32,000 nt of DNA from an uncultured bacterium (GTDB taxonomy: Bacteria; Auribacterota; JACPWU01), in the NCBI GenBank assembly GCA_964640155.1, contig CAZXEQ010000003.1, positions 254,189 through 286,188 on the forward strand, written 5' to 3'. The position numbers and the translations under genes are program-made. The notes under the pieces were generated by a model. That model saw only the letters and a list, made by a program, of their open reading frames with translations. It searched no databases and was not told where the DNA came from. This document shows, one piece after another, positions 1,651-18,536 of this stretch (position 1 is the stretch's first letter; each line of letters starts with the position of its first letter).

Positions 1651-2128
1651 AGGGCTCGGTAGCTATGGAACTCTTTTTTGTTTTTTGTTCCGCTTCATAT
1701 TTCGATGCACATTTGGCTTGGATTTTTTGTGCTAAGAAGATGCCATTATTATCCAAAGTTCCTTCAACCACAGCTTGACCTCCTTCTTTAAAAGTATCTG
1801 GAACAGGATCTCGGCCAATATAATGGACAGGTAGACTTAAAATTTCCTGCCCCCTGTCGGGGACTGCAGCAGCCTGCCCCCTAGCGGGGACTACAGAAGA
1901 TTGATGTATTGTGAAATAAAGGTCTGTCCCTTTTCTTTGGATAGAACCGTTTGTCACTTCACCTGCAACCCGAACACGTGTGCTTTTACCTTCAGCTTTC
2001 ATTGTTTTCAATTCTGTAATCGTAACGTAATAGGCCTTCCCTTCTTTAAACCCAGAGAAAGCAAGCCAGGTGAGAGTACTAAGAATGATGGAAATCCCGA
2101 TTATGAATTTTAAATGATGTCGTTGCAT
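1634..2128 (-). CDS. ccmE: Cytochrome c maturation heme chaperone CcmE, CxxxY variant
   Basis: 164-aa ORF with an N-terminal membrane anchor (IIGISIILSTLTWLAF) and OB-fold-like body (VRVAGEV..GSI....DLYFTI...VHY.G..PDTFKEGGQAVVEG). The C-terminal motif is AKCASKYEA where canonical CcmE has LAKHDENY. It lies directly upstream of, and overlaps, ccmF. Confidence 0.85.
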   Translation of the reverse strand: MQRHHLKFIIGISIILSTLTWLAFSGFKEGKAYYVTITELKTMKAEGKSTRVRVAGEVTNGSIQRKGTDLYFTIHQSSVVPARGQAAAVPDRGQEILSLPVHYIGRDPVPDTFKEGGQAVVEGTLDNNGIFLAQKIQAKCASKYEAEQKTKKSSIATEPYVQPR

Positions 2129-2289
2129 GATTTTCCTGTTTTTAGCCTTGAAAGTGAGAAGGGCGAATCATAGCACAAAATATATATTCATAGCAAGATT
2201 TTTCGAATCAATATTAATTTTATAACTATTTGATAATAAGCATATTATAAATATTTTGTTCTGCAGGACAGGCCTACTATCTAAAACGG

Positions 2290-2298
2290 TGGTATAAT
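2290..2298 (+). promoter_or_regulatory. Putative extended -10 promoter element TGGTATAAT for the 1108-aa ORF
   Basis: Exact TGnTATAAT match 56 nt upstream of the ATG at 2355, in a 226-nt AT-rich divergent intergenic region. The identical 9-mer lies upstream of the paralogous ORF at 5765-5773. Confidence 0.35.
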
Positions 2299-2354
2299 TA
2301 AAGACGGTTTAGTGAAGTTGATCAACGCAGGGGGGAAGCGAAAGGTTTTAGATA

Positions 2355-5300
2355 ATGCGAAAGCTTCTTGCGTTATTCATTAGCCTAACGTTGTTAGATG
2401 GTGGATTAAGTAAAGAGGTTTTTTCAGATTCTTCTCCCCGAGAAGCTAAACCCATTTACTCCAGTTTTTCCGATTTTCTCCAAAAAGTTAAAGCTGATTT
2501 AGAACCCTTTGTTCAATTTGGTCAAACCTCACTTGCGAATCCTGATAAACCTTTTTTTATTTTATTGCGTGATCTTCATTGTAATTATGAAGCTCAACTT
2601 TCTATTGCTAAAGCGATAGAAGTAGTCGCCAGTTATCAGTTATCAGTCTCCAGTAAAAATAATCCCTTAGTAACTGGCGACCGGCGACTGAGGACTGGTG
2701 ACGGTTTTTTAGTTTTAACCGAAGGTGCTGATGGGCCTGAAGATACAAGTTTGCTGGGAACATTTCCAGATAAAAAAGTAAGGGAAGAAGGATCAAGGGC
2801 ATTCATGAAAGAAGGAAAAATGACGGGTGCAGAGTTTTTGTCGATTACAAGATATGGAGAAATTCCTATTCACATTGAAGGCGTTGAAGATGCAGATTTA
2901 TATATAGAGAATCTTAAAGCTTTTCAGAAAGTTATTGGCAAGAGAGACGATGTTAAAAGCTTTATTGCAAAAACTGAAGAAGTCTTGAATCAAGTGAAGG
3001 AAAAGATTTATTCTCCCGAGTTGGTTGAATTAGAAGCCAAAGAACATCGTTATCAGGAGGGAAAAGAAAATATTGCTGTTTATGGAAAATACATTAGGGA
3101 AATTTATCTGAAATCATTAAGTGATCAGGGGACCCAGTTAGAAGGGTCGTTCAATGTAGATTTCCCTAATCTCGCTCTTTTTCTTGAAATGGCTCAAGCA
3201 CATCAAGAAATTTCAGCAGAAGAGGTAGAGAAGGAAAGAGTTGCTGCGATGGAGACACTGAGTCAAAAACTCCCTAAAGAGGAATTGGCGACACTCATTA
3301 AGCAAGCCCTGGAATATCGATTAGGGAAAGTTACCGGTTCAGATTATTGGAAAAATTTTTTTCAACTCGTACAAAAAAATCTAGATGTAGAAAAATATAA
3401 AACATTAGCAAAATACGCTCAATTAATGGGCAAAGAAAGCCTTCTGAATCATGAAACATTACTAGATGAAATCGAAAAGATAACTCAGAAGAGCAAAGAA
3501 AGATTGATGACTAAACAGGAAGAAAAAGAGGTTGCGAGTTTTAGTAAAAGACTTGAATTGTTAAAAAGGCTTTTAAATCTTGAGATGAGTCGAGATGATC
3601 TTGAGTTTTATCAAGCATGTTCTCAAGAAGCAGATATTGGCGTGATGCTTAAGCAATTAAAAGAATTCTCTGAAAAATGTGGCGTGGATTTTTCAAAGAA
3701 AATTTCAATTGAAAAAGAAGTGCAAAAGATTTCTAGCTTGCAAGCGGCCGCTCAAAAGTTTTATGAATTGGCTTTGAAGCGAGATGAGATGATGGCGGGG
3801 AAGGCTTTAAGGGCAGTGGATAATAAGCTACCCACAATCCACTATCCCCAAATCACTGTTTTAATCACCGGCGGTTTCCATTCTAGTGGTGTTGCCAAAA
3901 TTTTAAAAGAAGCAGGTGCTGGATTTATTATTTTAACTCCTCGAATCAAGGGCCAAATTGAAATGACAAATTATTTTCAATTAATGATGCATGAACAATT
4001 AAGGATGGGAACACTTGATTTTATTCATTTATTTGGACAAAAACTTGCACAAAGATTTCCTGAGATGGTTAGGGGAATGATGGAAGAAGCAATAAATGAA
4101 TTTATTGCTTTGGCTACAAAGCATAAAGTTTCTCAAGAACGACTTGTAGAATGGTTCGATGAATTAGTGCAGACGCATAACGAAGCAACAAGTTTTATCG
4201 CAGAGTTAAAAGCAAAAATTGTCAGTGATGGAACTCCTCCAATATCTCCATCTTCTTCAAAGAATAAACCAACTTTTATTCATACTGGTTTGCAAAAGCA
4301 AATTATTGATGCTCTTGTAGTAAGAGAAAAACCCGAAATGCAAGCGAGTGCTAAAGAACACTTAGAAGTTTTATTTGAACGCCTTAATGCCTCTATAGGC
4401 CCTAGCTGGTTTGCTGATGGAAGGATTTGTGGAAATTTGGCTGGGGTGAGAATTCTTGTTGAATTAATGGAGCAAGCAGACTTAAGTAAACCAGAGAATA
4501 GAGCACAGGAAATATCGAAATTAGCCAGAGAACTTTTTTGTTATCAAGTATTTCAGCAGATTTTGTCACCTATTTTAAGTGATCGTGAGCGAGAAAGTAT
4601 CATAGGTAGTTTGCCAGAAGATTTTAAAGAAAAATATGGACCATGCGAGGCAGAGGAGATTTTAGCCCGATTTTTAACTTCATTAATAACGGGCAAAGAT
4701 CAAGCTTCTTTAGCCCTCGATAGAGGGCAGAATCTTTTCGAAGATGTTTCTTTGGATTTGGAAGAGGCTTTAAGAGGAAAAACTTCTTTAGCAACTATTT
4801 TTGAGTTAATAGATGAAATGGGATCTTCGGAAAGTGATCGTGAACGGGTTGTTCAAGCCTTAGCAGCTCAAGTATCTATGACTGCTGATGAGGTAAAGGC
4901 TCGAGCGAGTCGTGCAGAAAATATAAATCATTTGGTTCAGGCAGGCTCAGTAACTTTAAGAGCTTGGGAAAAAATACAAAAAATAATTGCTTCAAGCTTC
5001 GAAGGTAAAAGACCTCGAGCTTATGTTTTTGAAATTCAAAATGAGCAAGAACTTATAGGACTTGCAGCTGCCTACCGTCAAATGCGATCTGTAGACAAGA
5101 AGGGGCATATCATTTTGAATACTTCTTTGGATAAGGGAGTGATTTTGAAATGGATGAGAACTCAAGGTTTGTCTGAAGAATTATTGGGTAAGGAAATTCA
5201 TGTGATCGATTTAGCTAAAAGAGGAAGGGTTGAGGAGCTGTTGGTGGGTATTCGTGGGTTAGAGGGTGCAACATTTTCTGAAGCTCAGACTGACGATATG

Positions 5301-5681
5301 GTGTTTGTGGTTTCTTCTGAAGAGTCTCGAACGCGTTTTCAGCCCAGGCAATACAAAGTGTTAATAGGACAATTGGGAGAATCAAGTCAATGGTCTCATC
5401 TGGTTCCTGATGCGATGGGAATGGCTTTAATTTTAGGAAGTGTTGATAAGGCTTTTGATAGAAATGAGATGACGAATGAATTAAGAAAGAGATTGGAAGC
5501 CTTTTTAATCGAAATCGCTCGTGAATATTTTACTGGAGAAGAAGATCAAGATAGGGAAGTGCAAGAAATGATTAACGAAATTGCCGAAAATGGGTATTTC
5601 AAAATGCCCCCATGGACCAACCCCATAGATTTAATGATGAATGAACTGGCTGCTCAAGAAATGATCGAGACTTCGGCATAA
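2355..5681 (+). CDS. Large secreted hypothetical protein (paralog A): shared N-terminal head plus unique C-terminal half
   Basis: 1108-aa uninterrupted ORF with a Sec-type signal peptide (MRKLLALFISLTLLDGGLSKE). Residues about 55-625 align clearly with the next ORF (KPFFILLRDLHCNYEAQ, FLVLTEGADGPEDTS, GAEFLSITRYGEIPIHIEGVEDADLYIENLKAFQ, TIHYPQITVLITGGFHSSGVAKILKEAGAGFIILTP). I recognise no named family with certainty. Confidence 0.85.
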   Translation: MRKLLALFISLTLLDGGLSKEVFSDSSPREAKPIYSSFSDFLQKVKADLEPFVQFGQTSLANPDKPFFILLRDLHCNYEAQLSIAKAIEVVASYQLSVSSKNNPLVTGDRRLRTGDGFLVLTEGADGPEDTSLLGTFPDKKVREEGSRAFMKEGKMTGAEFLSITRYGEIPIHIEGVEDADLYIENLKAFQKVIGKRDDVKSFIAKTEEVLNQVKEKIYSPELVELEAKEHRYQEGKENIAVYGKYIREIYLKSLSDQGTQLEGSFNVDFPNLALFLEMAQAHQEISAEEVEKERVAAMETLSQKLPKEELATLIKQALEYRLGKVTGSDYWKNFFQLVQKNLDVEKYKTLAKYAQLMGKESLLNHETLLDEIEKITQKSKERLMTKQEEKEVASFSKRLELLKRLLNLEMSRDDLEFYQACSQEADIGVMLKQLKEFSEKCGVDFSKKISIEKEVQKISSLQAAAQKFYELALKRDEMMAGKALRAVDNKLPTIHYPQITVLITGGFHSSGVAKILKEAGAGFIILTPRIKGQIEMTNYFQLMMHEQLRMGTLDFIHLFGQKLAQRFPEMVRGMMEEAINEFIALATKHKVSQERLVEWFDELVQTHNEATSFIAELKAKIVSDGTPPISPSSSKNKPTFIHTGLQKQIIDALVVREKPEMQASAKEHLEVLFERLNASIGPSWFADGRICGNLAGVRILVELMEQADLSKPENRAQEISKLARELFCYQVFQQILSPILSDRERESIIGSLPEDFKEKYGPCEAEEILARFLTSLITGKDQASLALDRGQNLFEDVSLDLEEALRGKTSLATIFELIDEMGSSESDRERVVQALAAQVSMTADEVKARASRAENINHLVQAGSVTLRAWEKIQKIIASSFEGKRPRAYVFEIQNEQELIGLAAAYRQMRSVDKKGHIILNTSLDKGVILKWMRTQGLSEELLGKEIHVIDLAKRGRVEELLVGIRGLEGATFSEAQTDDMVFVVSSEESRTRFQPRQYKVLIGQLGESSQWSHLVPDAMGMALILGSVDKAFDRNEMTNELRKRLEAFLIEIAREYFTGEEDQDREVQEMINEIAENGYFKMPPWTNPIDLMMNELAAQEMIETSA

Positions 5682-5694
5682 GCACTTCTTATGC
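5676..5694 (+). terminator. Weak stem-loop overlapping the stop codon of paralog A
   Basis: GCATAAG-cactt-CTTATGC forms a 7-bp stem and 5-nt loop, followed by AT-rich sequence without a clean U-tract. Confidence 0.2.
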
Positions 5695-5764
5695 ATATCT
5701 TAATATATTCTACAAGAACAAGTTAAATAATAATTGATATGTGCTTCCAAAATCATCATTTTTA

Positions 5765-5773
5765 TGGTATAAT
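5765..5773 (+). promoter_or_regulatory. Putative extended -10 promoter element TGGTATAAT for the giant ORF
   Basis: Exact TGnTATAAT match 64 nt upstream of the ATG at 5838. It is the same 9-mer found upstream of paralog A. Confidence 0.35.
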
Positions 5774-5837
5774 GAACCTATTATTGGGTGATCGAATCTA
5801 CTTGTGTCTGTGATGCTTAGATCTTTTGGGGAAATCC

Positions 5838-8800
5838 ATGAGTTTATTGAAAAAAATTATCATTTGTTTGCTCATTTTAGGTCAATTGGACTTAGGATGG
5901 GCTCAAGAGCTTTCCAAGTCAAAAAGAATATTAAAGTCAGAATTATCTCCAGTAAAAACTTTTATTAAAGAGCTTCAGAAAAAGCTCACTCCTTTCGTCA
6001 TCTTTGGGGAACAATTTTTCCATTCAACTTCAGACAAGCCCTTTTTTATTTTATTTCGAGATCTTCATTGTAATTACGAAGCACAGCAGAATATTGTGAA
6101 GACTTTAGAAATTATTTTGACGCAAAACGCTGTACACAATACGCACGACAATTTTTTAGTTTTAACCGAAGGTGCAGATGGGCCAGAAGACACAAGCTTC
6201 TTAGGAAAATTTCCAGACAAAAAGGTTCGGGAAGAAGCGTCTCAAAAATTTATGAAAGAAGGAAAAATAACCGGAGCAGAATTTTTATCGATTGCGAAGT
6301 ATGGAGAAATCCCTATTCAGATTGAAGGTATTGAAGATGCAGATTTGTATGTTGAGAATCTTAAAGCTTTTCAAGCTGTGATGGGGAAGAAACAACAAAC
6401 AGATGCTTTTGTTGAAGCAGCTGAATCCGTGATGGAAGAAATAAAGGTCAAAACCTTTTCTCAAAAGCTTTTAGAACTGGATGTGAAGGAAAATGAATTT
6501 GAGAAAGACTCGATTAAATTAGAGGAGTACGTGAGCTATCTTGGGAATCAGAATATACATTCTCTTGAGAAACTAGAGCAGTATCCAAACCTTTCTATTT
6601 TTTTTGAGTTGATATCCCATCAAGAAAGTATTTCTTCTGAGAGGGTTGAAGAAGAAAAAAATAAAGTTATAGAACAATTAAGCAAAAAACTACCTAAAGA
6701 AGAATTAAATCTTTTGATTCAACAAAGCTTGAAGTTAAGATTAGGAAAGGTTGCCCAGGAAGATTATTTTGGGAGTTTAGAGGAGCTGACTAAGAAAAAT
6801 CTTAAGTCGGAGAGATACCCTAGTCTCATCACCTATATCAGTATCGTGAAGAAGCAGGCAGAATTAAATCATGAATTATTGCTTGATGAAATCTATAAGC
6901 TTTCTGAAAAATTAAAGCAAGCCTTGGCGACGACAAGAGTTGAAAAAGAACTACTAACTCTTGATAAAAATTTGACTATTTTAAAACAGATGTTTCGATT
7001 AGAGATGACACGTGAGAATTTGGAGTTTGTGAAAGAGCATCGACAAATTTACCAAGTCGAAAGCATTATTGAACAGTTAAAGAAGTGCGTTTTGAAATCC
7101 AAAATTATCTTTCCTAAAGCATTTAATTCCCCTAGGCAAATTCAAGATCTCTCAGAAATATTTCAAGCGAGTGAACTTTTTTATGATTTAGCATTGAAGA
7201 GAGATGAAGTGATGGCTAGAAAGGCTTTAAAAGCAGTGGATAGTAATTGGAGGATAGGGGATAGTGACTTAAAGGAGATTATTAATAAAAACGATAAACT
7301 ATCCACAATCCACTATCCACAAATTCCTGTTTTGATCACTGGCGGCTTCCACTCTGACGGTATCACCAAAATTTTAAAAGAAGCAGGAGCAGGTTTTGTT
7401 GTTCTTACTCCAAAAGTAAATCAATCTCATGATATAAAAAATTATTTATCGCTCATGATGGATCAACGAATTCGTATTACGGCCTTAGATTTCTTTCATA
7501 TTTTTGGAAGAAAACTGGCGGAACGGTTCCCTGGGATGTCTCATGGCTTGTTGAAAGAGATCATTAGGGACTTTGTTGAATTAGGAAAGCAATATCAAAT
7601 TAATCCATATCAGCTGCACGCTTGGCTCGATCAAATTCAGGATGTAGACAAAACTATTTTAGATGAGATTCGCAAGATAATAGTTATTGAAAACCGTCCG
7701 GGACTTCCAAGGTGGGTAATGACTGTTGAAACAATAGCGGTATTGGTATTACGATTAAGTTCTATTACTGCCAATTTGACAGCGGATGTACTTACAGAAT
7801 TAGATAGAAAAGGGCGTCTCGACAGAAGGTTATATGAAGAAGTGGAGGAAAAATTTGTTTGGAGGCAAGAAGAAGTTCCAAAAATTAAGGTTGGTCTAGC
7901 AGCTTTGGCTGATTTTATTTATTTAGATCTTTTATGTGCTAAAGAGAGAGAAATGGATCAAGAACAAATGCTTCAATTAGTTTATCAATCTGCTCAAGCA
8001 AGGATTAAGGTATTTAGCTTGCTGCGTCCTCGTATGAAACAGGTTTTATTGGATAATAAGGTTAATTATTTTTTAGGCATTCAAAATATTTTAATAGTTA
8101 TTGATGAGCTTGAAGCTCATCGAGATGATTACGCTCGAATTGTCCAAGAATATTATAAAGAATATTTTTCTCGAGAAGGATTAAAAGGTTTTTTGGAATC
8201 TCCTCAGGGCTATTTTGGATCAGGTCGCGCTAATCTTTGGGGAAAAAGTCAGTTTCAAAAGTGGGCACGAGCGGAGCAGAGAATTATGTCAGATAAAACT
8301 TCATCAAAAACTGTTTCAACAGAAGGATCTTTAGGTATTAAGGGCGAAGAAGAGGTTATTTCTGATGCTAATCCGCTCTTGTCTATCTCTTATGTAGGAC
8401 ATGCTATGGAAGTTAAGAGACAAGTGAATCCTGATAATAAACCTTTAGTAGCTGTGTATGCTGGAGCAGGAACAGATATTTCTTCTTTTCTGCTAACTAC
8501 AAATGCGACGGAAGGATATTTTTTAGATCGCTCATCATTTGATATTAGAACTTTAAAGGATTTAGTTGAAGATGAAGAAAGTTGGGATAGCATTGATCTT
8601 GATGATCCATATATACGATCGAAGAGTACGATTGGGTATGGAGGATATGGATATTTAACTTTTAATCAGTTTCCTTTAAGAATTGTCCAGGAATTAAAAA
8701 GTATAGGTGTTAAACGAGAGTCTATTAAAATAGATATTCAGGATGGACGCGTAAATATTCAATTTTTATGGACTTACCCGGGAACTACCCAAGAGAGAAT

Positions 8801-11800
8801 CTATTCAATTACCTATATTTGCATGTCGGCCCACAGCATAGAGGATTCACTTCAGAGTGTATTTCTTAATAAGATTTTGGAACAAGGAATTGATATTTAT
8901 TATGAGCGAGCAAGTTTGGACATTCCTAAAGATTATGCCCTTTTTATGCCTGCAATAGGTCGAGCTCTGAAGGTAGGAGGATATGTCATTAGTAGTGATA
9001 CATGCCATAATGTAGACAAGAGTCCAAAGCGATTTTTGGAATCAAACGAGATTAAATTTGAAGCTATTTCTTCGACATTACTCTCAGAATGGTGGGCGAG
9101 TATGATGCCTACAGATGATTTTTATGGATCTAAAATGGGTGTATTGTGCAAAAAATCAGATTCTCGGTCTAATGATCAGATAGGTCTCATGGGAAAATTA
9201 TTTTTTGATGCATCTGGAGAACAAATTGCAACAGGGCCGATTACAGCGACAGAGTCAAATGGTGTTGTAACTTTTAAGACGATGGAAGGTGCAGAACTTT
9301 ATGATAATAAAGGAAACCCTGCACAAGTAAGAGTGCTGCGACAGGAACAATCACTCATATTTTCGTCTGTCATTCCCGCAAGTTTCAAGCGGGAATCTAG
9401 AGAAACTGGATCCCCGACAGGTACACTCGGGGATGACAACCAAATGGTTGTATCGGAGACATTAACGCCAGGTTTTGAAACTTATATTCGAGAAACACTT
9501 AGTAAGTCTGTGAGAGTTATTGCAGATGACTCTTCGGTGAAAGGGTTTTCAAATGGAGAAGTTTTATATTTAAGAGAGGATCTTTTAAAAGATCCCATTG
9601 CCCTGTTTCATGAGCTGGGTGAGGGATATTTTAAAAAGAATCCAAAAGAACTTCCTGGTCGAGACAATCCTAAAACGGTTGCTCTCAATCCGCATACTTA
9701 TCTAAGGGGTGTTGGGAAAGAGATTGGAAATCTTCCTGATATTGAAAAATATTCGGACCCTGCCAAACTCATTGAATACATAAAATCAAAACTTTCCCCC
9801 CATCGACAAAATGAAGCTGAATTTGCATTAATTCAATGGAATGCAAGTCAAGGTCGTACAGGTCGAGCTCTTTTTTATGGGCTACAAGATCTTGTGTTTG
9901 GAGAAGAAGCAAATCGTATTTTGAGTGAGAAAGTAGGCAAAAAGAAAGTTTTACCTCGACCCCCTTTGGATAAATTAAAAGCAGGTTTATCTGCTGTAGC
10001 AGACATTGTCTATTTAGATCTTCTCTATGCTAAAGAAAGAGGCTTGGATCAGGAACAAATGATTCAGTTGGCCTATCAATCCGCTCAAGCGCGAATTAAA
10101 GCATTTAGTGCATTTGGTAAATGGGCAAGAGATTTTCAATATGGCCCAAATCCTTATCAATATGTTGTGTTTCGTTATGTCGTAGATGTCATTGATGAAC
10201 TCGAAGCCCATCGAGATGAGTATGCACAGATGGTTAAGGAATATTATGAAGAGTTTTTTGAGAAAAAAGGGATTAATGGACTTGTTGGAAACACTACTAT
10301 GTATTATGGGATTTATAAACCACCATTGATAGGAAAGAGTAGATTTAGAGATTGGGGAAAAGCTGATGAAAAAATAAGATCTACGAGACAATTAGGATCT
10401 CAAACTATTTCAAAAGGTCCTCTCAATGTAGATAGAGATGCTATTCCTGAGGATACAAATGCTGTTTTGTCTCCTGCTTATATTGCATATTCCATGGAAC
10501 TCAAAAAACAAGTCAATCCTGATAATAGGCCCTTGGTGGCTGTTTATGGGGGAGCAGGATCTGACATTTCTTCATTTCTCTTGTCTACGAATGCTACTGA
10601 AGGCTATTTCGTCGAAGGAGCGCCTGTAGATGCTAAGAAGTTGAAGAAATGGATAGAGGAAGATTGGGGAAAAGTTGAATTAAATGATGGATATATGCAA
10701 CGCAAAAGATTTAGAGGTTTTGGAGAAAGTAGAGATTTAGGGAAATCTTTGGAGTATCGGATTGCTCAAGAATTGAAAGCGATGAGAGTTAACCCTAAAA
10801 CTATTCACATTTCTGTGAAAGATGTGGAGGACAGAAGAACATTGTTTATGGGACGTCATGATCCTAATCCTAAGAAGTATGTAAAAATTGAGTTTGATTG
10901 GACATATCCGGGAGTACAAGAAAGCAAGTATTCGATTACTTATATTCCTGAGAGTATTTTTGACATTGCTACCTATCACCGTGAAATAGAAAGGTCATTG
11001 TTAGATAAAGTATTGGGCAGGGGTATAGACGTTTATTATCAGAGAGCAGGAGAGGATATTGCAGAGATATATGAACATTTAATGCCTGTTTTAGGAAAGG
11101 TGCTTCGTCCGGGGGGATGTATCGTCAGTGATAATTGCAAGAACACGAAAATGACCGAGAGAGAAAGTGGAATCGTTGATCCAAAACCTTTCTTGGAGCA
11201 GAATGGAGATAAGTTTGAAGTTGTTCCTCCGACACTATTGATGGATTGGTGGACTGTCATCATGCCCAGCTGTACGCCTTATGGATCAAAGATGAATGTT
11301 TTGCGTAAACAACCTCATGAAATAAGGGTAGAGGATTTTCTCAAAATTATTGAAAAGCGTATTTTGGATGAGCAAAGACCTTTATCTGTTGAGGTATTAA
11401 AAATACTGATTATAGATTTTTTAACACTTTCTTATCAGTATGATTTTGATATTAGCCCCATATCACTTTGGCTTAAAGGATGGGCAAATAAGCGAGTAGC
11501 CAGAGAAGTTGCTATTTCCATAGATGAGGATAAAACTATTGCTTTTCTGAGAGAGCAATTATCTGTTAGAGCCCAGCACATAGGAGATAATTCAAAACCT
11601 TTTTCGCAAAATTTATTTGGAGACTCGATTAAAAAAATATTTGAGTCAAGTTTAACTATTTTTGAAGAAGCTTTGGAAGACGCCTCTCGTGAGGATATTT
11701 CTTACTCTTCTTTTCTACGCGAGGTTAGAAAAGAAAAAAAATCTCGAATTTCAGGGGGGCTTGCGGCTTTGGCCGACTTTGTGTGGATAGATTTGAAATG

Positions 11801-13169
11801 GGCTGAAATAGCTTGTGGATACTCTCTTAGAGGTGAGGAATTAACGCAAGCAGCCCAAGAATTTGTAGTTTCTAGGATTCAAGGATTAATGTCTATAACA
11901 GAAGATTTGCAAAAAACAGCTTTAGGGTTTATTGATGCACCTTCTCCAGAATTACAAGGGCTCAATGACATGTTGCAAATTATTGAATATATTAAAAGTC
12001 ATCAAGAAGAATGTATACATGCGGTGGTTAGGTATCTCGAGGAAGAGTATGCAAACGATGATGGAATTACCCCTGATTTAAATTCTATGACCCGTAGACA
12101 TATTTACGGAGTAAGTGGGGCTAGAGATTGGAAAGGTTGGGAAAATGTGTTACAGAATAGAGGTGTTGCATTAAGTTCTAGATATATACCTCGATTTTTA
12201 AAAACTAAAGAAGTCGATGTACCTTCTTATCCAGTCCTAAGTAAGCCTCATGTAGGTTATGCCATGGCTGTTAAAGAAATGGTTAATCCTCATAATGAAG
12301 ATTTAACAGTTATTTATGGCGCAGCAGGTGCTGATATTTCTTGCTTTCTACTATCCACTAATGCAACGAATGGGTATTTTATTGATCCTATCATTCCTGA
12401 TCCTCAGAAATTTAAAGAAATCCTTGTGGATGACTGGGAAAATTTAAACTTAAATGATTCATATATGAAAACAAAAAGGGAGAGAGGTTTTGCAAATATG
12501 GTGGATCTTTCAGAAAGAAAGGTCGTGTCTCTGAGACTCGCTCAAGAGTTGAAAGCAATGGGTGTAGAGAAAGAGTCGATAAAAGTCCAACATAACTCTA
12601 GGAATAAGAGACATATGCGTATTTCTTTTGACTGGATTTATCCTGGAACCAATCAGAAAAGAAATTATGTCATTACGTATATTGCTTGCCCTGTTCAAGA
12701 AATGGCTAGCCCAACAAAAAGAGATCCTGAAATTGCAAAACTTTTAGATGGAGAAAATGTGGATATTTATTATCAGAGAGCAGGCCTTGATATCCCAAAG
12801 CTTTATGAATCATTTTTACCTGCTTTATCTTCAGGTGTAAAACCAGGAGGATTTCTTGTTACGAATGATTATGAGTCAGGAGGAAGAGATTCTCGTATCT
12901 TTTTTGCAAGAGCAAATGAGCTGGGTTTTGAGGAACAATATCCTTCTTATGCTGCAAAATGGTGGGAAATGATGATTCCTTATGAATCTCCTTATGGTTG
13001 GAAAATGCATATTCGTAGAAAAATGAAAGAGTCTGCTGATTATAGGATAACTCTTACAGATGTTAAAACAATTGGATCGGAGAAAGGGGAAATTAATTTA
13101 ACAGTAGGAGTTCCTGCACATCCACATGCTTTTCATGTTTCACCGAGCTTTGTAGAGCAGGCTGCATAG
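5838..13169 (+). CDS. Giant secreted hypothetical protein (paralog B): shared N-terminal head plus three tandem methyltransferase-like modules
   Basis: The ORF track opens this ORF at a TTG (5826). The ATG at 5838 gives MSLLKKIIICLLILGQLDLGWAQE, a typical signal peptide. About 2443 aa are uninterrupted. The N-terminal roughly 620 aa are paralogous to ORF 2355-5681, and the rest contains three internally repeated modules (listed separately). Confidence 0.85.
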   Translation: MSLLKKIIICLLILGQLDLGWAQELSKSKRILKSELSPVKTFIKELQKKLTPFVIFGEQFFHSTSDKPFFILFRDLHCNYEAQQNIVKTLEIILTQNAVHNTHDNFLVLTEGADGPEDTSFLGKFPDKKVREEASQKFMKEGKITGAEFLSIAKYGEIPIQIEGIEDADLYVENLKAFQAVMGKKQQTDAFVEAAESVMEEIKVKTFSQKLLELDVKENEFEKDSIKLEEYVSYLGNQNIHSLEKLEQYPNLSIFFELISHQESISSERVEEEKNKVIEQLSKKLPKEELNLLIQQSLKLRLGKVAQEDYFGSLEELTKKNLKSERYPSLITYISIVKKQAELNHELLLDEIYKLSEKLKQALATTRVEKELLTLDKNLTILKQMFRLEMTRENLEFVKEHRQIYQVESIIEQLKKCVLKSKIIFPKAFNSPRQIQDLSEIFQASELFYDLALKRDEVMARKALKAVDSNWRIGDSDLKEIINKNDKLSTIHYPQIPVLITGGFHSDGITKILKEAGAGFVVLTPKVNQSHDIKNYLSLMMDQRIRITALDFFHIFGRKLAERFPGMSHGLLKEIIRDFVELGKQYQINPYQLHAWLDQIQDVDKTILDEIRKIIVIENRPGLPRWVMTVETIAVLVLRLSSITANLTADVLTELDRKGRLDRRLYEEVEEKFVWRQEEVPKIKVGLAALADFIYLDLLCAKEREMDQEQMLQLVYQSAQARIKVFSLLRPRMKQVLLDNKVNYFLGIQNILIVIDELEAHRDDYARIVQEYYKEYFSREGLKGFLESPQGYFGSGRANLWGKSQFQKWARAEQRIMSDKTSSKTVSTEGSLGIKGEEEVISDANPLLSISYVGHAMEVKRQVNPDNKPLVAVYAGAGTDISSFLLTTNATEGYFLDRSSFDIRTLKDLVEDEESWDSIDLDDPYIRSKSTIGYGGYGYLTFNQFPLRIVQELKSIGVKRESIKIDIQDGRVNIQFLWTYPGTTQERIYSITYICMSAHSIEDSLQSVFLNKILEQGIDIYYERASLDIPKDYALFMPAIGRALKVGGYVISSDTCHNVDKSPKRFLESNEIKFEAISSTLLSEWWASMMPTDDFYGSKMGVLCKKSDSRSNDQIGLMGKLFFDASGEQIATGPITATESNGVVTFKTMEGAELYDNKGNPAQVRVLRQEQSLIFSSVIPASFKRESRETGSPTGTLGDDNQMVVSETLTPGFETYIRETLSKSVRVIADDSSVKGFSNGEVLYLREDLLKDPIALFHELGEGYFKKNPKELPGRDNPKTVALNPHTYLRGVGKEIGNLPDIEKYSDPAKLIEYIKSKLSPHRQNEAEFALIQWNASQGRTGRALFYGLQDLVFGEEANRILSEKVGKKKVLPRPPLDKLKAGLSAVADIVYLDLLYAKERGLDQEQMIQLAYQSAQARIKAFSAFGKWARDFQYGPNPYQYVVFRYVVDVIDELEAHRDEYAQMVKEYYEEFFEKKGINGLVGNTTMYYGIYKPPLIGKSRFRDWGKADEKIRSTRQLGSQTISKGPLNVDRDAIPEDTNAVLSPAYIAYSMELKKQVNPDNRPLVAVYGGAGSDISSFLLSTNATEGYFVEGAPVDAKKLKKWIEEDWGKVELNDGYMQRKRFRGFGESRDLGKSLEYRIAQELKAMRVNPKTIHISVKDVEDRRTLFMGRHDPNPKKYVKIEFDWTYPGVQESKYSITYIPESIFDIATYHREIERSLLDKVLGRGIDVYYQRAGEDIAEIYEHLMPVLGKVLRPGGCIVSDNCKNTKMTERESGIVDPKPFLEQNGDKFEVVPPTLLMDWWTVIMPSCTPYGSKMNVLRKQPHEIRVEDFLKIIEKRILDEQRPLSVEVLKILIIDFLTLSYQYDFDISPISLWLKGWANKRVAREVAISIDEDKTIAFLREQLSVRAQHIGDNSKPFSQNLFGDSIKKIFESSLTIFEEALEDASREDISYSSFLREVRKEKKSRISGGLAALADFVWIDLKWAEIACGYSLRGEELTQAAQEFVVSRIQGLMSITEDLQKTALGFIDAPSPELQGLNDMLQIIEYIKSHQEECIHAVVRYLEEEYANDDGITPDLNSMTRRHIYGVSGARDWKGWENVLQNRGVALSSRYIPRFLKTKEVDVPSYPVLSKPHVGYAMAVKEMVNPHNEDLTVIYGAAGADISCFLLSTNATNGYFIDPIIPDPQKFKEILVDDWENLNLNDSYMKTKRERGFANMVDLSERKVVSLRLAQELKAMGVEKESIKVQHNSRNKRHMRISFDWIYPGTNQKRNYVITYIACPVQEMASPTKRDPEIAKLLDGENVDIYYQRAGLDIPKLYESFLPALSSGVKPGGFLVTNDYESGGRDSRIFFARANELGFEEQYPSYAAKWWEMMIPYESPYGWKMHIRRKMKESADYRITLTDVKTIGSEKGEINLTVGVPAHPHAFHVSPSFVEQAA
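7893..9155 (+). repeat. Intragenic protein-level repeat, module 1 of 3 (helical lead-in plus Rossmann/SAM-MTase-like core)
   Basis: Motif series: GLAALADFIYLDLLCAKEREMDQEQMLQLVYQSAQARIKVFS ... VIDELEAHRDDYARIVQEYYKEYF ... VNPDNKPLVAVYAGAGTDISSFLLTTNATEGYFLD ... FLWTYPGTTQERIYSITYI ... GIDIYYERAS ... LKVGGYVISSD ... WWASMMP..FYGSKMGVLCKK. The same ordered series recurs in modules 2 and 3. Confidence 0.75.
9984..11312 (+). repeat. Intragenic protein-level repeat, module 2 of 3
   Basis: Motif series: GLSAVADIVYLDLLYAKERGLDQEQMIQLAYQSAQARIKAFS ... VIDELEAHRDEYAQMVKEYYEEFF ... VNPDNRPLVAVYGGAGSDISSFLLSTNATEGYFVE ... FDWTYPGVQESKYSITYI ... GIDVYYQRAG ... LRPGGCIVSDN ... DWWTVIMP..PYGSKMNVLRKQ. Confidence 0.75.
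11757..13022 (+). repeat. Intragenic protein-level repeat, module 3 of 3 (most diverged)
   Basis: Motif series: GLAALADFVWIDLKWAE ... IIEYIKSHQEECIHAVVRYLEEEY ... VNPHNEDLTVIYGAAGADISCFLLSTNATNGYFID ... FDWIYPGTNQKRNYVITYI ... VDIYYQRAG ... VKPGGFLVTND ... KWWEMMIP..PYGWKMHIRRK. Confidence 0.7.
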
Positions 13170-13222: not shown

Positions 13223-13486
13223 ATGTTGATCGAAAAATTTAAGTTAGCTGTTGAAGAAATTTTGAAAAGACGATGGGTGGGGGAGTTTGATTTGGCAGAT
13301 TTAATCATACAGCCCTATGGGTGCAGTCTTGTATTTAAAAGTACAAAAGATAATTATCGGTTTTCTCCGACGATTATTTCAAATAAATTGATTTTAGCTA
13401 TTCTGGTTGATAATTCTGTAAATGCTCGTCAAGCATTAGAAAAAGAGATTGAAACAGCTTTTCAAAAATATGTAATTAGTGGATAA
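13223..13486 (+). CDS. Hypothetical small protein (87 aa)
   Basis: ATG-initiated ORF filling the gap between the giant ORF and folE. Its stop lies 2 nt before the folE ATG, and a TATAAT hexamer sits at 13209-13214. I recognise no motif. Confidence 0.45.
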
Positions 13487-13487
13487 C

Positions 13488-14054
13488 ATGTCCAAAGACT
13501 CTATTGAATCTAATATTGAAGCAATTTTGAAATATATTGGAGAAGATCCAACACGTCAAGGTCTTGCCAAAACGCCTCACCGAGTTCAAAAATCTTTTGA
13601 GTATTTGACATCAGGTTATTCAAAGAATATCAACGAAGTTTTGAATGGTGCTGTTTTTGATGAAGCTTATGATGAGATGGTGACGGTAAAAGATATTGAG
13701 ATTTTTAGTCTTTGTGAACATCATCTTTTGCCTTTTTATGGGAAATGTCATGTCTCTTATATTCCCAATGGGAAAATAATTGGTTTAAGTAAAATTCCTC
13801 GTTTGGTTGAAGTTTTTTCCAGGCGTCTTCAGGTACAGGAAAGACTCACTACACAAATAGCCAATTGTATTAACGACACACTGAAACCCCGAGGGGTTGG
13901 TGTTGTTGTAGAAGCCTTCCATTTGTGCATGGCGATGCGTGGAGTTGAAAAACAGCATGCCTTTGCTGTAACAAGTTCTATGCTTGGAGCCTTTCGGTCA
14001 GATCGTGGGACTCGTATGGAATTTTTGAACTTCATTAGTCCTAAAGGACGATAA
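13488..14054 (+). CDS. folE: GTP cyclohydrolase I (FolE type)
   Basis: Strong family motifs: [77 protein letters not shown]. The track opens at a GTG (13479). I prefer the ATG at 13488, but either start is possible. Confidence 0.93.
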
Positions 14055-14539: not shown

Positions 14540-14631
14540 ACTTCCAAAGTACATTCTTGATCTCTTGTTTTCCCCTTGCTTTCATGCGATAATGAATACA
14601 CCGGTGGTTCTTTGCAGCAGTGGAGGAGGCC

Positions 14632-15255
14632 ATGTCCAAGCTCAAAAAGGGGTCATTAGGATTTACTGTCAATGAGATGGTGATGGTTCTGGCGACCATT
14701 CTTTTCCTGGCCACAATTTTGCTACCCAGTCTTCTGAAGGCTAGAGAATCAGGCCGTTCAACCAAATGTGTTGGGCATTTAAAAAACCTGATTCAGGCGG
14801 TACAATTATATGTGAGTGATGAATCTTTGGGTCGTTTCCCTGATTTGAATCCAGATACAGATTTAAAGGATATGATGAGTCTTTTACTCCCTTATCTTGG
14901 AAGCTCTACCTCGATTACAACAGTCAAACCAGAATTACAAGTCTTTCGATGTCCATCCAATGACAATGCAAATAATTTCTCAAATCGACAAGACACTTAC
15001 GGAAATCAAACGGATTATAGTTTTAATACCAATTTAGATAATCAAGTTGCGCAAACCCGTGTTGGAAGTCCCCAGTGGGTTTCTGTTTTATGGGATTACC
15101 CATCATTTCCTACTTCTTCCAAAGCACACATTCATAGAGGCGGTACCAATATTGCTTTTTACGATGGACATGTTCAGTGGTTTTCTAGAGATCAGATGAT
15201 GGAGTCACACGCGCCTGACACTGGAACTCAATACAATACATGGGGAATTAATTAA
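14632..15255 (+). CDS. Prepilin-type N-terminal cleavage/methylation domain protein with C-terminal H-X9-DG motif (DUF1559-like)
   Basis: The ATG at 14632 is preceded by GGAGGAGG (the track opens at GTG 14620). N-terminus is KKGSLGFTVNEMVMVLATILFLATILLPSL (G|FTxxE pilin-like), then KCVGHLKNLIQAVQLY, then C-terminal HRGGTNIAFYDGHVQWFS, an exact H-X9-DG spacing. Confidence 0.85.
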   Translation: MSKLKKGSLGFTVNEMVMVLATILFLATILLPSLLKARESGRSTKCVGHLKNLIQAVQLYVSDESLGRFPDLNPDTDLKDMMSLLLPYLGSSTSITTVKPELQVFRCPSNDNANNFSNRQDTYGNQTDYSFNTNLDNQVAQTRVGSPQWVSVLWDYPSFPTSSKAHIHRGGTNIAFYDGHVQWFSRDQMMESHAPDTGTQYNTWGIN

Positions 15256-15903
15256 ATGTTAAAGGCAGACAGACGCAGGTTTAAGAGAAATCAAGGTTTG
15301 ACCATGATCGAAATGGTTGTGGTTTTTGCGGGGCTGATCATTTTAATTGGTCTTTTGGCCCCTACGCTTAAAAAAGTGAGAGATACAGGTAAAAGGGTCA
15401 AATGCTTAAGTAATTTAAAGCAATTGGGGGTTGCCATGGATATGTATATCCAAGACGACCGTCAAGGCCGTTTTCCTGGTTGGAGTGGGAATTGTAATTT
15501 GGTTGAAAATTTACCAAATCTTCTAAACGCTTATTTAGGGCAAGAAGATACGGATGCTTTAACGAGTGGGGAATTGAGTCAATTCCGTTGTCCTGCAAAT
15601 CAGTATACTGGTAATCTTTCTCAACGACAGGATGCATATGGAAATCAAGTGGACTATGAGCTTAATTGTAATTTGAGAGGACAATCTGTTGTTGCTGAAG
15701 TAGGTAATGATGCTATCGCTGTTATATTAGCGGATTTTCCAGCTTATCCAGCAAGTGCTTCCAATCAGGTTCATTTAACGGGAACAAACCTTCTTTTTGT
15801 AGACGGTCATGCCCAGTGGTATAGCAGAAGCAAACTTAACTCTGCATGGCCTAATGAGACGCAATATCCTGGGACTGCTTACTACAACTGGGGAACACAG
15901 TAA
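15256..15903 (+). CDS. Prepilin-type N-terminal cleavage/methylation domain protein with C-terminal H-X9-DG motif (tandem paralog)
   Basis: Motifs are GLTMIEMVVVFAGLIILIGLLAPTL, KCLSNLKQLGVAMDMY and HLTGTNLLFVDGHAQWYS (H-X9-DG). The ORF starts immediately after the previous stop (TAA-ATG). It shares FRCP.N....N.S.RQD.YGNQ.DY with the upstream paralog. Confidence 0.85.
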   Translation: MLKADRRRFKRNQGLTMIEMVVVFAGLIILIGLLAPTLKKVRDTGKRVKCLSNLKQLGVAMDMYIQDDRQGRFPGWSGNCNLVENLPNLLNAYLGQEDTDALTSGELSQFRCPANQYTGNLSQRQDAYGNQVDYELNCNLRGQSVVAEVGNDAIAVILADFPAYPASASNQVHLTGTNLLFVDGHAQWYSRSKLNSAWPNETQYPGTAYYNWGTQ

Positions 15904-16139: not shown

Positions 16140-16214
16140 CCTCCAGACAAAAACATTGCTGCTCAAAATTATTTGTGATATTTTCATTTGCCTTGATGCA
16201 TTTTGAATGCTCAG

Positions 16215-18536
16215 ATGAGCGAACTTTGTTGCAACCGATGGGGAGTTGTGGAGCTCAAGTCTAATAAATCTCTTAATTTTCGTTGGTTCTTGGTGGGGCT
16301 GTTTACAGTCTCACTCTCTCTTATTTTTCCATTTTTTGTTCACGCCAAAGATGTCAAAAAGCTGGAAGTTTGGGCAATGGGCGAGGAAGGTCAGAAAATT
16401 GGAGTTCTTGCCAGAGAATTTGAAAAAACACATCCCAATGTTAAGGTCGTTGTTCAAGCTATTCCATGGGGTGCCGCTCATGAGAAATTAATTACGGCAG
16501 TTGCAGGCGAATCAACTCCTGATGTTTGTCAGCTTGGAAGCACTTGGGTTTCTGAATTTCAGGCCATGAAAGTGCTTCTTCCTTTAGATCCATTTTTAGC
16601 AAAATCCTCCATAAAATCAGAAGATTTTTTTCAAAGCGCTTTGAATGTCAATATCATCGCAAATCAACTTTACGGGGTTCCATGGTATGTCGATACGCGA
16701 GTTCTTTTCTTTCGCAGAGATATTTTAGAAGAAGCTGGTTTTAATCACGCTCCCCATACCTGGAAAGAATTGTACGAAATGTCCAGGCGCCTGACTCGAG
16801 ATTTTGATCAAGATGGAAAAAAAGAACGTTATGGGGTTAATTTGCCTTTGCGCGATTGGCAACATTTCTTGATGTTTGTTTGGCAAAATGGCGGAAATAT
16901 TCTTTCAGAAGATGGAACTAAAGTTGAAATTGAAAGTCCTGAAGTACGAGAAGCTTTAGAGTATTATGTTCATTTTTTTCATGCGGGCTTTGCTCCAAGA
17001 GAATTAGCTACAGGAACAGATATCTTTAATGCATTTGATAAAGGTTTTTTGCCCATGTTTATCAGTGGGCCTTGGATGCTTCGTCAATTGCACGAGCAAT
17101 TACCTCATTTAGATGGCAAATGGGATGTGGTTACCTTGCCTTCAAAAAAGGGTTTTACCTCTTTCGTTGGTGGTTCAAGTCTTGTCATTTTTAAATCGAC
17201 AAAAAAGGCTCAACTGGCTTGGGAATTTATTCAATTTATGAGCGAACCACAAAACCAAGTGAAGTGGTATCAATTGACAGAAGATTTGCCATCCAATCAA
17301 CATGCCTGGAAAGACCCGTTTTTTGAAAAATTGGGAATGGTGAGGGTTTTTGGACAGCAGTTGGCTGATGCAAAGAGTTCTCCTTCTATTCCTCAGTGGG
17401 AAGAAATTGCAAATGTTATTGATAATGGAATGGAAAGGGCGATTTTTGAGAAGGACAAAGTAGAAAATGTTCTTCGTCAAATGTCTCTTCAAATTCAAAA
17501 AATTCTAGAAAAAGATCATCGCAACCAAAGCCCTCTTTTTAAGGGAACTATTATTGTCATCTTCCTGGGAATCATTTTTCTTCTATTGTTTTTTTATTTC
17601 TATGCTAATTCTAAGAAGATCCCGTATGAGATTGTGAGCGTTTCTTTTTTTGGGAAAATGAAACGATATTTAAAGGCCTATGGTTTTATCGCGCCAAGTA
17701 TTCTGATCTTTACAGTATTTCTTTTAGCTCCAGTCTTTATTTCTCTTTTGATGAGTTTTACTAATTGGGATATACGATCGATTGTAGATGTGGGACAAGT
17801 TTCTTTTGTGGGGCTTGAAAATTATAAAAACCTTATGCACGATCCTATTTTTAAACGAGCCTTATGGAACACCTTTATATTTGTCTTGATTGGAGGTCCG
17901 TTGACAATGATCATAGCTCTTTTTTTAGCTATGGTTATGAACAATGCTCTTGTTAAATTTAGAACCTTTTTCCGAGTGGGCTTTTTTACACCGGTTGTTA
18001 CAACCATGGTGGCGGTAGCAGTGGTTTGGCGATGGCTTTATAATTCCAGATTTGGCTTGATCAACTGGGTTTTAAGTCTTTTAGGTTTAGATGGGCAAAA
18101 TTGGCTTGGTGATGTTACTTGGGCTATGCCTGCATTGATTGTGATGGCAGTCTGGAAGAATTTTGGTTATCACATGGTCATTTTTTTGGCGGGATTACAG
18201 GGAATTCCACCGCATCTTTATGAAGCTGCTAATATTGATGGAGCCAATCGTTTTCAAGCCTTTTGGCATATTACGATTCCTCTTTTGCGCCCAACCATTT
18301 TCTTTGTGGCTATTATGACCAGTATTGGGTATTTTCAGTTTTTTGCGGAGCCTTACATCATGACAGATGGGGGACCTCTGGACAGTACAGTTTCGGTCAT
18401 TCTTCATATGTATCGGCAGGGCTTTAAGTTTTTCCATATGGGCTATGCTTCCAGTATTGCGTATGTTCTCTTTATTGTCATAGCTGCTTTTTCAATCATT
18501 CAATTCAGAATGAACAAACAGAGTTTTGAGTACTAA
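16215..18536 (+). CDS. Carbohydrate ABC transporter: extracellular solute-binding protein (family 1) fused to a MalF/UgpA-type permease
   Basis: The track opens at TTG 16203, and the first ATG is at 16215. Order along the protein is signal/anchor (FRWFLVGLFTVSLSLIFPFFVHA), a roughly 400-aa SBP_bac_1-like region (LEVWAMGEEG..., PDVCQLGSTWVSEF, YGVPWYVDTRVLFFRRD, FISGPWM), an extra TM helix (GTIIVIFLGIIFLLLFFYF), then a 6-TM permease with an EAA loop (YEAANIDGANRFQAFWHITIPLLRP). Confidence 0.85.
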   Translation: MSELCCNRWGVVELKSNKSLNFRWFLVGLFTVSLSLIFPFFVHAKDVKKLEVWAMGEEGQKIGVLAREFEKTHPNVKVVVQAIPWGAAHEKLITAVAGESTPDVCQLGSTWVSEFQAMKVLLPLDPFLAKSSIKSEDFFQSALNVNIIANQLYGVPWYVDTRVLFFRRDILEEAGFNHAPHTWKELYEMSRRLTRDFDQDGKKERYGVNLPLRDWQHFLMFVWQNGGNILSEDGTKVEIESPEVREALEYYVHFFHAGFAPRELATGTDIFNAFDKGFLPMFISGPWMLRQLHEQLPHLDGKWDVVTLPSKKGFTSFVGGSSLVIFKSTKKAQLAWEFIQFMSEPQNQVKWYQLTEDLPSNQHAWKDPFFEKLGMVRVFGQQLADAKSSPSIPQWEEIANVIDNGMERAIFEKDKVENVLRQMSLQIQKILEKDHRNQSPLFKGTIIVIFLGIIFLLLFFYFYANSKKIPYEIVSVSFFGKMKRYLKAYGFIAPSILIFTVFLLAPVFISLLMSFTNWDIRSIVDVGQVSFVGLENYKNLMHDPIFKRALWNTFIFVLIGGPLTMIIALFLAMVMNNALVKFRTFFRVGFFTPVVTTMVAVAVVWRWLYNSRFGLINWVLSLLGLDGQNWLGDVTWAMPALIVMAVWKNFGYHMVIFLAGLQGIPPHLYEAANIDGANRFQAFWHITIPLLRPTIFFVAIMTSIGYFQFFAEPYIMTDGGPLDSTVSVILHMYRQGFKFFHMGYASSIAYVLFIVIAAFSIIQFRMNKQSFEY

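Follow-up and report, generated by a model that had tools for sequence, protein, structure and literature searches.

The window analyzed here, a stretch of 32,000 nucleotides from contig CAZXEQ010000003.1 of an uncultured bacterium assigned to the Auribacterota, carries on its forward strand a giant gene contained in a single open reading frame of 2,447 codons (5826..13169). Translation probably begins with the ATG at 5838, giving a protein of 2,443 amino acids that equals the entry P0001 of a collection of 15 billion proteins. An earlier reading of the DNA alone (hereafter the original prediction) had proposed that this gene encodes a secreted polypeptide with three tandem modules resembling class I S-adenosylmethionine (SAM)-dependent methyltransferases. 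In the following we describe these modules, for whose cores a divergent class I methyltransferase fold is well supported by structural modelling, and the domain family to which they belong, and weigh what an exported protein of this kind might do.

Repeated modules of the giant gene

The three modules (M1, M2 and M3) occupy the intervals 7893-9155, 9984-11312 and 11757-13022, all in the frame of the giant open reading frame, and correspond to residues 690-1110, 1387-1829 and 1978-2399 of the protein. In BLASTP comparisons M1 aligns with M2 at 43% identity over 449 columns (E = 2e-120) and with M3 at 33% identity (E = 2e-68). The same ordered motifs recur in each module, and all the strings that the original prediction had read as a repeated series are present in place. 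These are a glycine-rich loop (VAVYAGAGTD, VAVYGGAGSD and TVIYGAAGAD, at residues 875, 1571 and 2161), an acidic residue in YFLD, YFVE or YFID that lies exactly 19 residues past the last glycine of the loop in every copy, a further motif at residues 1022, 1734 and 2312 (IDIYYERA, IDVYYQRA and VDIYYQRA), and LKVGGYVIS, LRPGGCIVS or VKPGGFLVT 26 residues downstream of the latter, a spacing that had been put at about 27.

At the DNA level the modules are 65–74% identical, and this in patches only; the comparison revealed no recent duplication or gene-conversion tract among them. Furthermore, the three cores are mutual best or near-best protein matches among 152 domains of the family described below. 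Given the patchy DNA identity and the mutual affinity of the cores, the duplications are old and lineage-specific, and the modules are not recent copies of one another. That their resemblance arose by chance, by low-complexity repetition or as an assembly artefact has a negligible probability in view of the pairwise E-values, the 404 homologous cluster representatives, a syntenic ortholog in an independent metagenome-assembled genome (MAG), the purifying selection on the modules and the high-confidence structure model of the M1 core; chance is excluded as its source.

The ortholog lies on a contig (L001) of a Candidatus (Ca.) Auribacterota MAG, which is syntenic with the window; at 81–91% nucleotide identity, the synteny extends from the 3' part of the giant gene over folE and two DUF1559 genes to an ABC transporter. 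Positions 1-6216 of this contig correspond to window 10437-13169, with a different module layout: inter-module segment 2 of the window protein, for which no family match was found, is missing, M2 abutting the next lead-in, and the ortholog extends about 1,340 residues beyond its last methyltransferase-fold module, whereas the window protein ends after 48. The amino acid identity between the two proteins is 91% for M2 and 63% for M3. For the M2 core and for M3 the ratio of nonsynonymous to synonymous substitution rates (dN/dS) amounts to 0.19 and 0.21, respectively, compared with 0.045 for the neighbouring folE, indicating that the two copies open to this test are under purifying selection; judged by their sequences, none of the three looks like a decaying pseudo-domain. 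The synonymous divergence (dS) itself is 0.24 for the M2 core (10437-11312) and 0.68 for folE (13479-14051), and the low value of the former suggests an uneven history of the locus, for example a recent exchange of the M2 module.

Table 1. Coordinates of the giant gene's features and of the adjacent paralog in the window
Feature	Position	Strand	Basis or remark
Signal-peptide-like N-terminus (MSLLKKIIICLLILGQLDLGWA, followed by QE)	5838..5903	+	n-h-c layout, heuristic call
N-terminal head domain, aa 27-640	5904..7745	+	44% identity to upstream paralog over 646 aa
M1 helical lead-in, aa 690-841	7893..8348	+	aligns with M2 and M3 lead-ins
M1 core, class I methyltransferase-fold (predicted), aa 842-1110	8349..9155	+	AlphaFold2 pLDDT 90.5; Foldseek PDB top 50 are SAM methyltransferases
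M1 core motifs	VNP 8421-8438; Gly loop 8448-8477; D901 8526-8528; IDIYYERA 8889-8912; LKVGGYVIS 8967-8993; YGS 9123-9131		
Inter-module segment 1, aa 1111-1386	9156..9983	+	carries FHELGEGYF...HTYLRGVGK element
M2 helical lead-in, aa 1387-1539	9984..10442	+	module alignment
M2 core, class I methyltransferase-fold (predicted), aa 1540-1829	10443..11312	+	family-profile match 290.9 bits
M2 core motifs	Gly loop 10536-10565; E1597 10614-10616; IDVYYQRA 11025-11048		
Inter-module segment 2, aa 1830-1977	11313..11756	+	no counterpart in L001 ortholog
M3 helical lead-in, aa 1978-2128	11757..12209	+	module alignment
M3 core, class I methyltransferase-fold (predicted), aa 2129-2399	12210..13022	+	family-profile match 307.4 bits
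C-terminal tail, 48 aa, and stop codon	13023..13169	+	translation; no matches
Adjacent paralog: signal peptide, head domain and unrelated 480-aa C-terminal half, without methyltransferase-fold module	2355..5681	+	

Fold and family of the core domain

For the M1 core, an AlphaFold2 model computed from the three cores aligned with 20 stand-alone homologs reached a mean predicted local distance difference test score (pLDDT) of 90.5 and a predicted template-modelling score (pTM) of 0.90. A Foldseek search of the PDB with this model, a check that the original prediction had itself proposed, gave 38 matches at E<=1e-3, with E-values from about 1e-4, and the top 50 matches were without exception SAM-dependent class I methyltransferases (probability 0.93–1.00, mostly 1.00). 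These include NNMT, the Arabidopsis halide methyltransferase (3lcc), TPMT and CbiT (3e05), as well as calmodulin-lysine methyltransferase, NSUN4/6, histamine methyltransferase and the methyltransferase domain of OvoA. The predicted secondary structure elements run in the order N-helix, β1 (875-879), αA, β2 (896-901), four helices, a β-hairpin (968-983), β3 (990-999), αC, β4 (1022-1027), αD, β5 (1048-1056), αE, β6, a helix and β7, which along the chain matches the class I arrangement β1-αA-β2...β4-αD-β5-αE-β6-β7 with its terminal β-hairpin.

The motif I loop (YAGAGTD, YGGAGSD and YGAAGAD) follows directly upon the strand predicted at 875-879 and its counterparts. It is a variant form that lacks the leading D/E, and it aligns with the G63-S-G65 loop of NNMT. 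The acidic residues D901, E1597 and D2187 are predicted to end β2; in class I methyltransferases an acidic residue at the C-terminal end of this strand contacts the ribose hydroxyls. In the model, the additions to the class I topology amount to about three helices and the β-hairpin between β2 and β3. Thus, the insert of about 110 residues that had been placed between motifs post-I and II stands as far as the extra helices and the hairpin are concerned, but its Y.ITYI part is the genuine, canonical β3. Likewise, the helical lead-in noted before each core does align across the three modules, but it is lineage-restricted and lies outside the conserved unit of about 270 residues defined below. Overall, the motif order that had suggested a Rossmann-fold SAM methyltransferase fits the modelled element order, and a divergent class I SAM-methyltransferase fold of the core is well supported by the model.

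In sequence searches no Pfam or NCBIfam model matched the giant open reading frame at threshold, none of the three modules included. The Pfam methyltransferase families weighed at their gathering thresholds were Methyltransf_11/12/25/31, NNMT_PNMT_TEMT and AdoMet_MTase; the best sub-threshold match was that of one family member's domain to Methyltransf_31 (E = 4.9e-4; 20.2 bits against a cutoff of 27), and M2 weakly matched AdoMet_MTase over residues 1551-1609, the motif I region (E = 0.13). When the family profile was run against PDB sequences, 14 of the 17 best matches were class I methyltransferases, among them PEAMT, NNMT and the pavine and tetrahydroprotoberberine N-methyltransferases; all were sub-threshold (E 0.1–1.3), and their alignments fell on motif I/post-I and the β4-αD-β5 region. 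A phmmer search of the PDB with the whole giant protein returned zero matches, and jackhmmer searches meant to derive a canonical-methyltransferase profile from the giant proteins found nothing. An hhalign comparison of the family with the window's own canonical methyltransferase (26266-26970), which has no detectable similarity to the modules, was uninformative (probability 0.5%).

A separate observation concerns the 'ELkalGVd.edI' column (residues 956-967, 1649-1660 and 2241-2252), a short, highly conserved helix-turn with a local sub-threshold match to the XisI-like protein 3d7q in the PDB. The match recurred in two independent profile searches, and is probably a chance local motif.

An exhaustive HMMER search of 1.84 billion cluster representatives with a profile of the three modules recovered 404 proteins at E<=1e-3, of which 282 reached E<=1e-10 and 77 reached E<=1e-30; a word-indexed homolog search, by comparison, had found no protein with module 2 and three with the family profile. 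In nearly all family matches only profile positions ~158–433 align, which defines the C-terminal ~270 residues of each module as the conserved unit. Outside the window the lead-in (GLAALADF...) has full-length matches in P0002 and on L001 alone, and partial ones in P0011 and P0125. By these searches, the core domain constitutes a sizeable, previously undescribed family without a Pfam or NCBIfam model. The best 152 family proteins are mostly 2–8 thousand amino acids (kaa) long, many homologs of the core domain sitting in proteins of 4–8 kaa, and 16 of them carry the domain in tandem (two copies in 14, three in 2). At the other end of the size range are 26 complete stand-alone proteins of <450 residues. 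The named database members are 'hypothetical proteins' of Omnitrophota, and other genomic matches came from Omnitrophota, a Planctomycetales MAG and one 'Actinomycetota' MAG.

Conservation was quantified over 152 domain instances, and the conserved columns were mapped by their positions along the chain onto the secondary structure of the model. The constellation begins with N-P before β1 (97% and 89%) and Y-G-x-[AS]-G-x-D after it (central G 95%, D 84%), with T-N/D-A as a further conserved position, and continues with Y-F-x-D ending β2 (F 89%), Y...K...G (84–93%), E-L...G-V (91–94%), the hairpin signature F-x-W-x-Y (99%, 93% and 84%) and a D after β3 (69%). There follow D-x-Y-Y-Q-[RK]-A in β4 (D 89%, A 93%), G-G in β5 (89%) with a conserved T-D-D after this strand, and Y-G-W before β7 (Y 94%). 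Since these columns lie where the strands β1-β5 end on their C-terminal side and in the loop preceding β7, we infer that they would form the class I cofactor/substrate site. All three copies in the window protein keep the N, P, Y, G, D, T-N-A, Y-F-x-[DE], K, G and E-L positions, as well as F-x-W-x-Y, D-x-Y-Y, R-A, G-G and Y-G, so that nearly all family-conserved residues are retained in each. M3 is nearest to the family consensus: its acidic position after β3 is E, the motif before β7 reads YGW and column 308 is R; M1 and M2 have derived states in common, namely Ser at the post-β3 position, YGS for YGW and Leu at column 308.

Export, head domain and proposed mode of action

The N-terminus of the window protein combines an n-region with a lysine pair (MSLLKK), an 11-residue h-region (IIICLLILGQL) and a c-region (DLGWA) with a GWA cleavage-type site before QE. 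By a heuristic rule (basic n-region, h-region of 7–15 residues, small-x-small site) this constitutes a Sec signal peptide. No convincing internal transmembrane segment was found in the protein, and the N-terminal segment is the only strongly hydrophobic one at the N-terminus. The upstream paralog and the majority of the family members have the same layout: scored by a crude rule of n-h-c organization plus a small-x-small site, signal peptides are present in 46 of the 64 complete large members and in 8 of the 26 stand-alone ones. Moreover, a signature c-region of the form F[LV]x[QN][DQ][IV]S[FWY]A is found at 17 of 126 complete N-termini (for example P0069, P0036, P0095 and P0122) against 0.1% of internal windows, an enrichment of ~120-fold, with a looser form at window 5838-5903. 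This signature may be a lineage- or pathway-specific export signal. Taken together, these sequence features support export of the window protein, in agreement with the secreted polypeptide originally proposed.

In an alternative topology the N-terminal segment would be an uncleaved anchor, or not be used for export at all, and the modules would face the producer's cytoplasm and methylate endogenous substrates with cytoplasmic SAM. The heuristic nature of the signal-peptide call and the several basic residues after the putative cleavage site (QELSKSKR) would fit such an arrangement, as would the 46% of long Omnitrophota proteins that are reported to have transmembrane segments only, with their bulk predicted to be cytoplasmic (10.64898/2026.06.07.730766). 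We regard it as quite improbable, however, because the n-h-c layout with its small-x-small site is a classic one that is conserved in the paralog and dozens of relatives, the signature c-region is strongly enriched at N-termini, and the protein has no further transmembrane segments; with a single N-terminal helix preceded by a basic n-region, the rest of the protein would sit outside.

The signal peptide is followed by a head domain, which is shared with the product of the adjacent upstream gene (2355-5681), a protein of 1,108 residues with a signal-peptide-like N-terminus of its own. As this paralog has the head domain without any methyltransferase-fold module, the head is a separable N-terminal unit. 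A head domain of ~500–610 residues is likewise found near the N-terminus, behind the signal peptide, in 19 other proteins with the methyltransferase-fold domain (including P0024, P0086, P0051, P0122 and P0009). The residues D-x-H...Q, E-G, R-D and GG-x-H are invariant in this domain; of these, the D-x-H, E-G, R-D and GG-x-H presumably fit the catalytic or ligand-binding His...Glu...Arg...GxxH pattern of the ChaN/Tiki/TraB/erythromycin-esterase proteins. The AlphaFold2 model of the head (pLDDT 80) has an α/β core split by a helical insert of ~330 residues. A Foldseek search with this model returned no significant fold match, the weak matches of the domain being to Pfam ChaN (E = 0.069) and, by Foldseek, to 2g5g (E = 3.1, probability 0.20). 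In our judgement the PDB sequences matched by the head-domain profile, calmodulin among them, resemble the helical insert by chance. Pfam searches with the inter-module segments, the tail of the L001 ortholog and the C-terminus of the paralog found nothing.

Based on these features, we consider it moderately probable that the giant gene encodes an exported protein with three class I methyltransferase-fold modules whose copies bind SAM and methylate, probably in the cytoplasm of another cell. Such a Sec-exported modular protein would consist of the signal peptide, the head domain of ~610 residues and three modules, each with a lead-in and a core of ~270 residues, whose methyltransferase-fold domains would fold independently. 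Each copy would bind SAM at the canonical site through the glycine loop, the following aspartate and the acidic residue of β2, and would methylate a substrate held on an aromatic-rich, family-specific surface composed of the N-P loop, the Y/K/G helix, the F-x-W hairpin, YYQR, TDD and YGW. The three copies may have diverged in specificity. By structure as well as by profile, the nearest neighbours are N/S-methyltransferases of small molecules, which hints at a small amine-type substrate. SAM is intracellular and not available outside cells; therefore, activity would require entry into another cell, and would most likely set in once the protein or released modules reach that cell's cytoplasm. 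Between M1 and M2, an element of the form FHE[LA][GA][EH].Y[FY]...H.Y.RG.GK lies at window 9606-9632 (residues 1261-1269), and it is found twice in the tail of the L001 ortholog (residues 898 and 1605), once as a true HExxH (FHEAAHSYF); more speculatively, it may be a zinc-peptidase-like processing element.

Several points weigh against this interpretation. The TM-scores of the Foldseek matches are modest (0.33–0.43) and the identities only 9–13%, which fits a relative that is remote and carries inserts. No Pfam or NCBIfam methyltransferase model reached threshold in any of the 23 aligned members or the 57 shorter family proteins. When a noisier profile, derived from a messy full-length alignment, was run against the PDB, the methyltransferase signal was lost, and for this reason homology to known methyltransferases is not established at the sequence level. 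The post-I acidic position is D/E in just 65% of the family domains, and the post-β3 acidic position is the above-mentioned Ser in M1 and M2. Neither a delivery system nor a conserved partner gene was found beside the giant gene or the genes of its relatives, and the neighbourhoods of stand-alone and giant relatives alike have no conserved partner. Finally, a free-living, fermentative way of life has been inferred for Ca. Auribacterota (PMC9324843), which makes an effector acting in another cell less obvious.

The same incomplete retention of the post-I acid would be expected if the fold had been repurposed and no longer methylated, serving instead in extracellular ligand-binding or scaffolding or acting on some other small molecule independently of SAM. 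Such a role would also be in keeping with an extracytoplasmic location without SAM and with the signal peptides found across the family, with the sub-threshold similarity to active methyltransferases in sequence, and with the strongest conservation lying outside the SAM motifs (N 97%, F 99%, W 93%, E-L 91–94%, Y 94%). Set against this, the glycine of the loop, the D following it and the D of β4 are retained in 95%, 84% and 89% of the domains, the conserved residues cluster in the model at the class I cofactor/substrate position, and Pfam-detectable methyltransferase, kinase and GNAT domains are found on the same kind of exported proteins. Specifically, relatives with the same signal peptide and head layout carry an APH-type kinase, a HAD hydrolase and a PrmA-like methyltransferase within reach of Pfam, and further HPr, subtilase, GNAT and metallophosphatase domains. 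Given such bona fide enzymes, the cofactor paradox is a general one and no sign of decay in the present family. A non-methylating fold is hence a serious alternative to SAM-dependent methylation, which we nonetheless deem unlikely.

A more far-reaching idea, for which we would hold out only limited hope, is that the family comprises methyltransferases built for work outside the producer's cytoplasm. They would then be one cassette of a modular export system made of the signature signal peptide, the head and interchangeable enzyme modules, possibly released by the HExxH-like elements, which Omnitrophota, Auribacterota and their relatives would use to deliver SAM- and ATP-dependent enzymes into neighbour or prey cells; alternatively, a non-canonical extracellular methyl donor might be involved.

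Neighbouring genes and relation to known systems

Downstream of the giant gene the window contains two tandem DUF1559 genes with a prepilin-like N-terminus (14620-15903, + strand). DUF1559 is typical of bacteria of the Planctomycetes-Verrucomicrobia-Chlamydiae group, and these genes are reminiscent of the small class III signal-peptide genes reported near the giant genes of Omnitrophota. Further on, an open reading frame of 777 codons (16203-18536, + strand) encodes an extracellular solute-binding domain (SBP_bac_1) fused to the ABC permease domain BPD_transp_1, with a second permease and then GH35 and GH94 genes downstream of it, which together look like a sugar-uptake and phosphorolysis cluster. 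Three consecutive genes in the segment 25183-28074 (+ strand) encode a type III polyketide synthase, then a class I SAM methyltransferase of canonical type (Methyltransf_25/11) and lastly an FAD-dependent oxidoreductase; they look like a small biosynthetic cluster of the alkylresorcinol or pyrone type.

Among known enzymes, the best structural and the best sub-threshold profile matches of the modules are the NNMT/PNMT/INMT- and TPMT/HOL-type class I methyltransferases (PDB 6chh, 2iip, 3bgd and 3lcc). These enzymes share with the modules a Rossmann-like core with a glycine loop after β1, an acidic residue ending β2, a β5 of the LKPGG type and an aromatic-rich periphery of the active site. The modules differ from them in their low identity (9–13%) and the want of any matching Pfam model, in their motif I (Y-G-x-[AS]-G-x-D rather than [DE]-x-G-x-G-x-G), in ~60–80 extra residues between β2 and β3 (helices and β-hairpin) and an extra helix between β6 and β7, and in their occurrence in tandem within signal-peptide-bearing proteins of several kiloresidues.

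A parallel in architecture is provided by the giant multi-enzyme ('Archaeovorin-type') proteins of Omnitrophota (West-Roberts et al. 2023, bioRxiv 10.1101/2023.11.21.568195; 2026 preprint 10.64898/2026.06.07.730766). In these, cytoplasmic-type enzymes (methyltransferase, GNAT, HATPase, HAD and kinase) form a mosaic behind a signal peptide and/or transmembrane segments, the same architecture as in the head-domain relatives. Methyltransferase-like domains detectable only by structure prediction have already been described in such giants, and both papers mention that the giants contain methyltransferases and point to the puzzling prediction that metabolic domains lie outside the membrane. Hence the view that three such domains on an exported protein are highly unusual was overstated, as the domain recurs in exported multi-enzyme giants. 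As far as we searched, there is no mention in either paper of the core domain family, of the head domain or of the signature in the signal peptides. The window protein differs from these giants in coming from a Ca. Auribacterota-like genome, in having a signal peptide and no transmembrane segment, and in consisting almost entirely of one repeated domain type instead of diverse enzymes. It is also much smaller, at 2.4 kaa against the >=10 kaa of the giants in the cited catalogues, yet it has the signal peptide, head and methyltransferase-fold of its 4–8 kaa relatives.

The present analysis names an unannotated domain, present in at least 404 protein clusters and recurrent, often in tandem, in Omnitrophota-like giants, and supplies a hypothesis about it that can be tested. 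With 2.4 kaa and free of transmembrane segments, the window protein would be far easier to express than giants of 10–100 kaa, and the stand-alone homologs of 300–380 residues with signal peptides are even smaller and likewise tractable. Such compact members would allow a direct test of whether enzymes behind signal peptides are active, and what they methylate and where; the activity of cofactor-dependent enzymes in this position is a question raised by both giant-protein papers.

Secreted SAM-methyltransferase effectors are an established class (PMC10117894, PMC10653858), and examples such as RomA of Legionella (PMC10117894, PMC7819608) provide a precedent for exported SAM enzymes that use the recipient's SAM pool. 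These are mostly SET-domain or other methyltransferases delivered into eukaryotic hosts by type III or type IV secretion systems, whereas the window protein has a Sec-type signal, no injection system nearby and a different fold family; the analogy is functional only. In sum, the fold, the class of exported multi-enzyme giants and the secreted methyltransferase effectors are already known. The novelty lies in four points: a distinct methyltransferase-fold family of considerable size, unannotated so far, in which motif I is variant and an insertion separates β2 from β3; the frequency with which this domain is multiplied in tandem; the association of the domain with a conserved head and with a signature signal peptide; and its occurrence in an Auribacterota-like genome, within a compact protein amenable to experiments.

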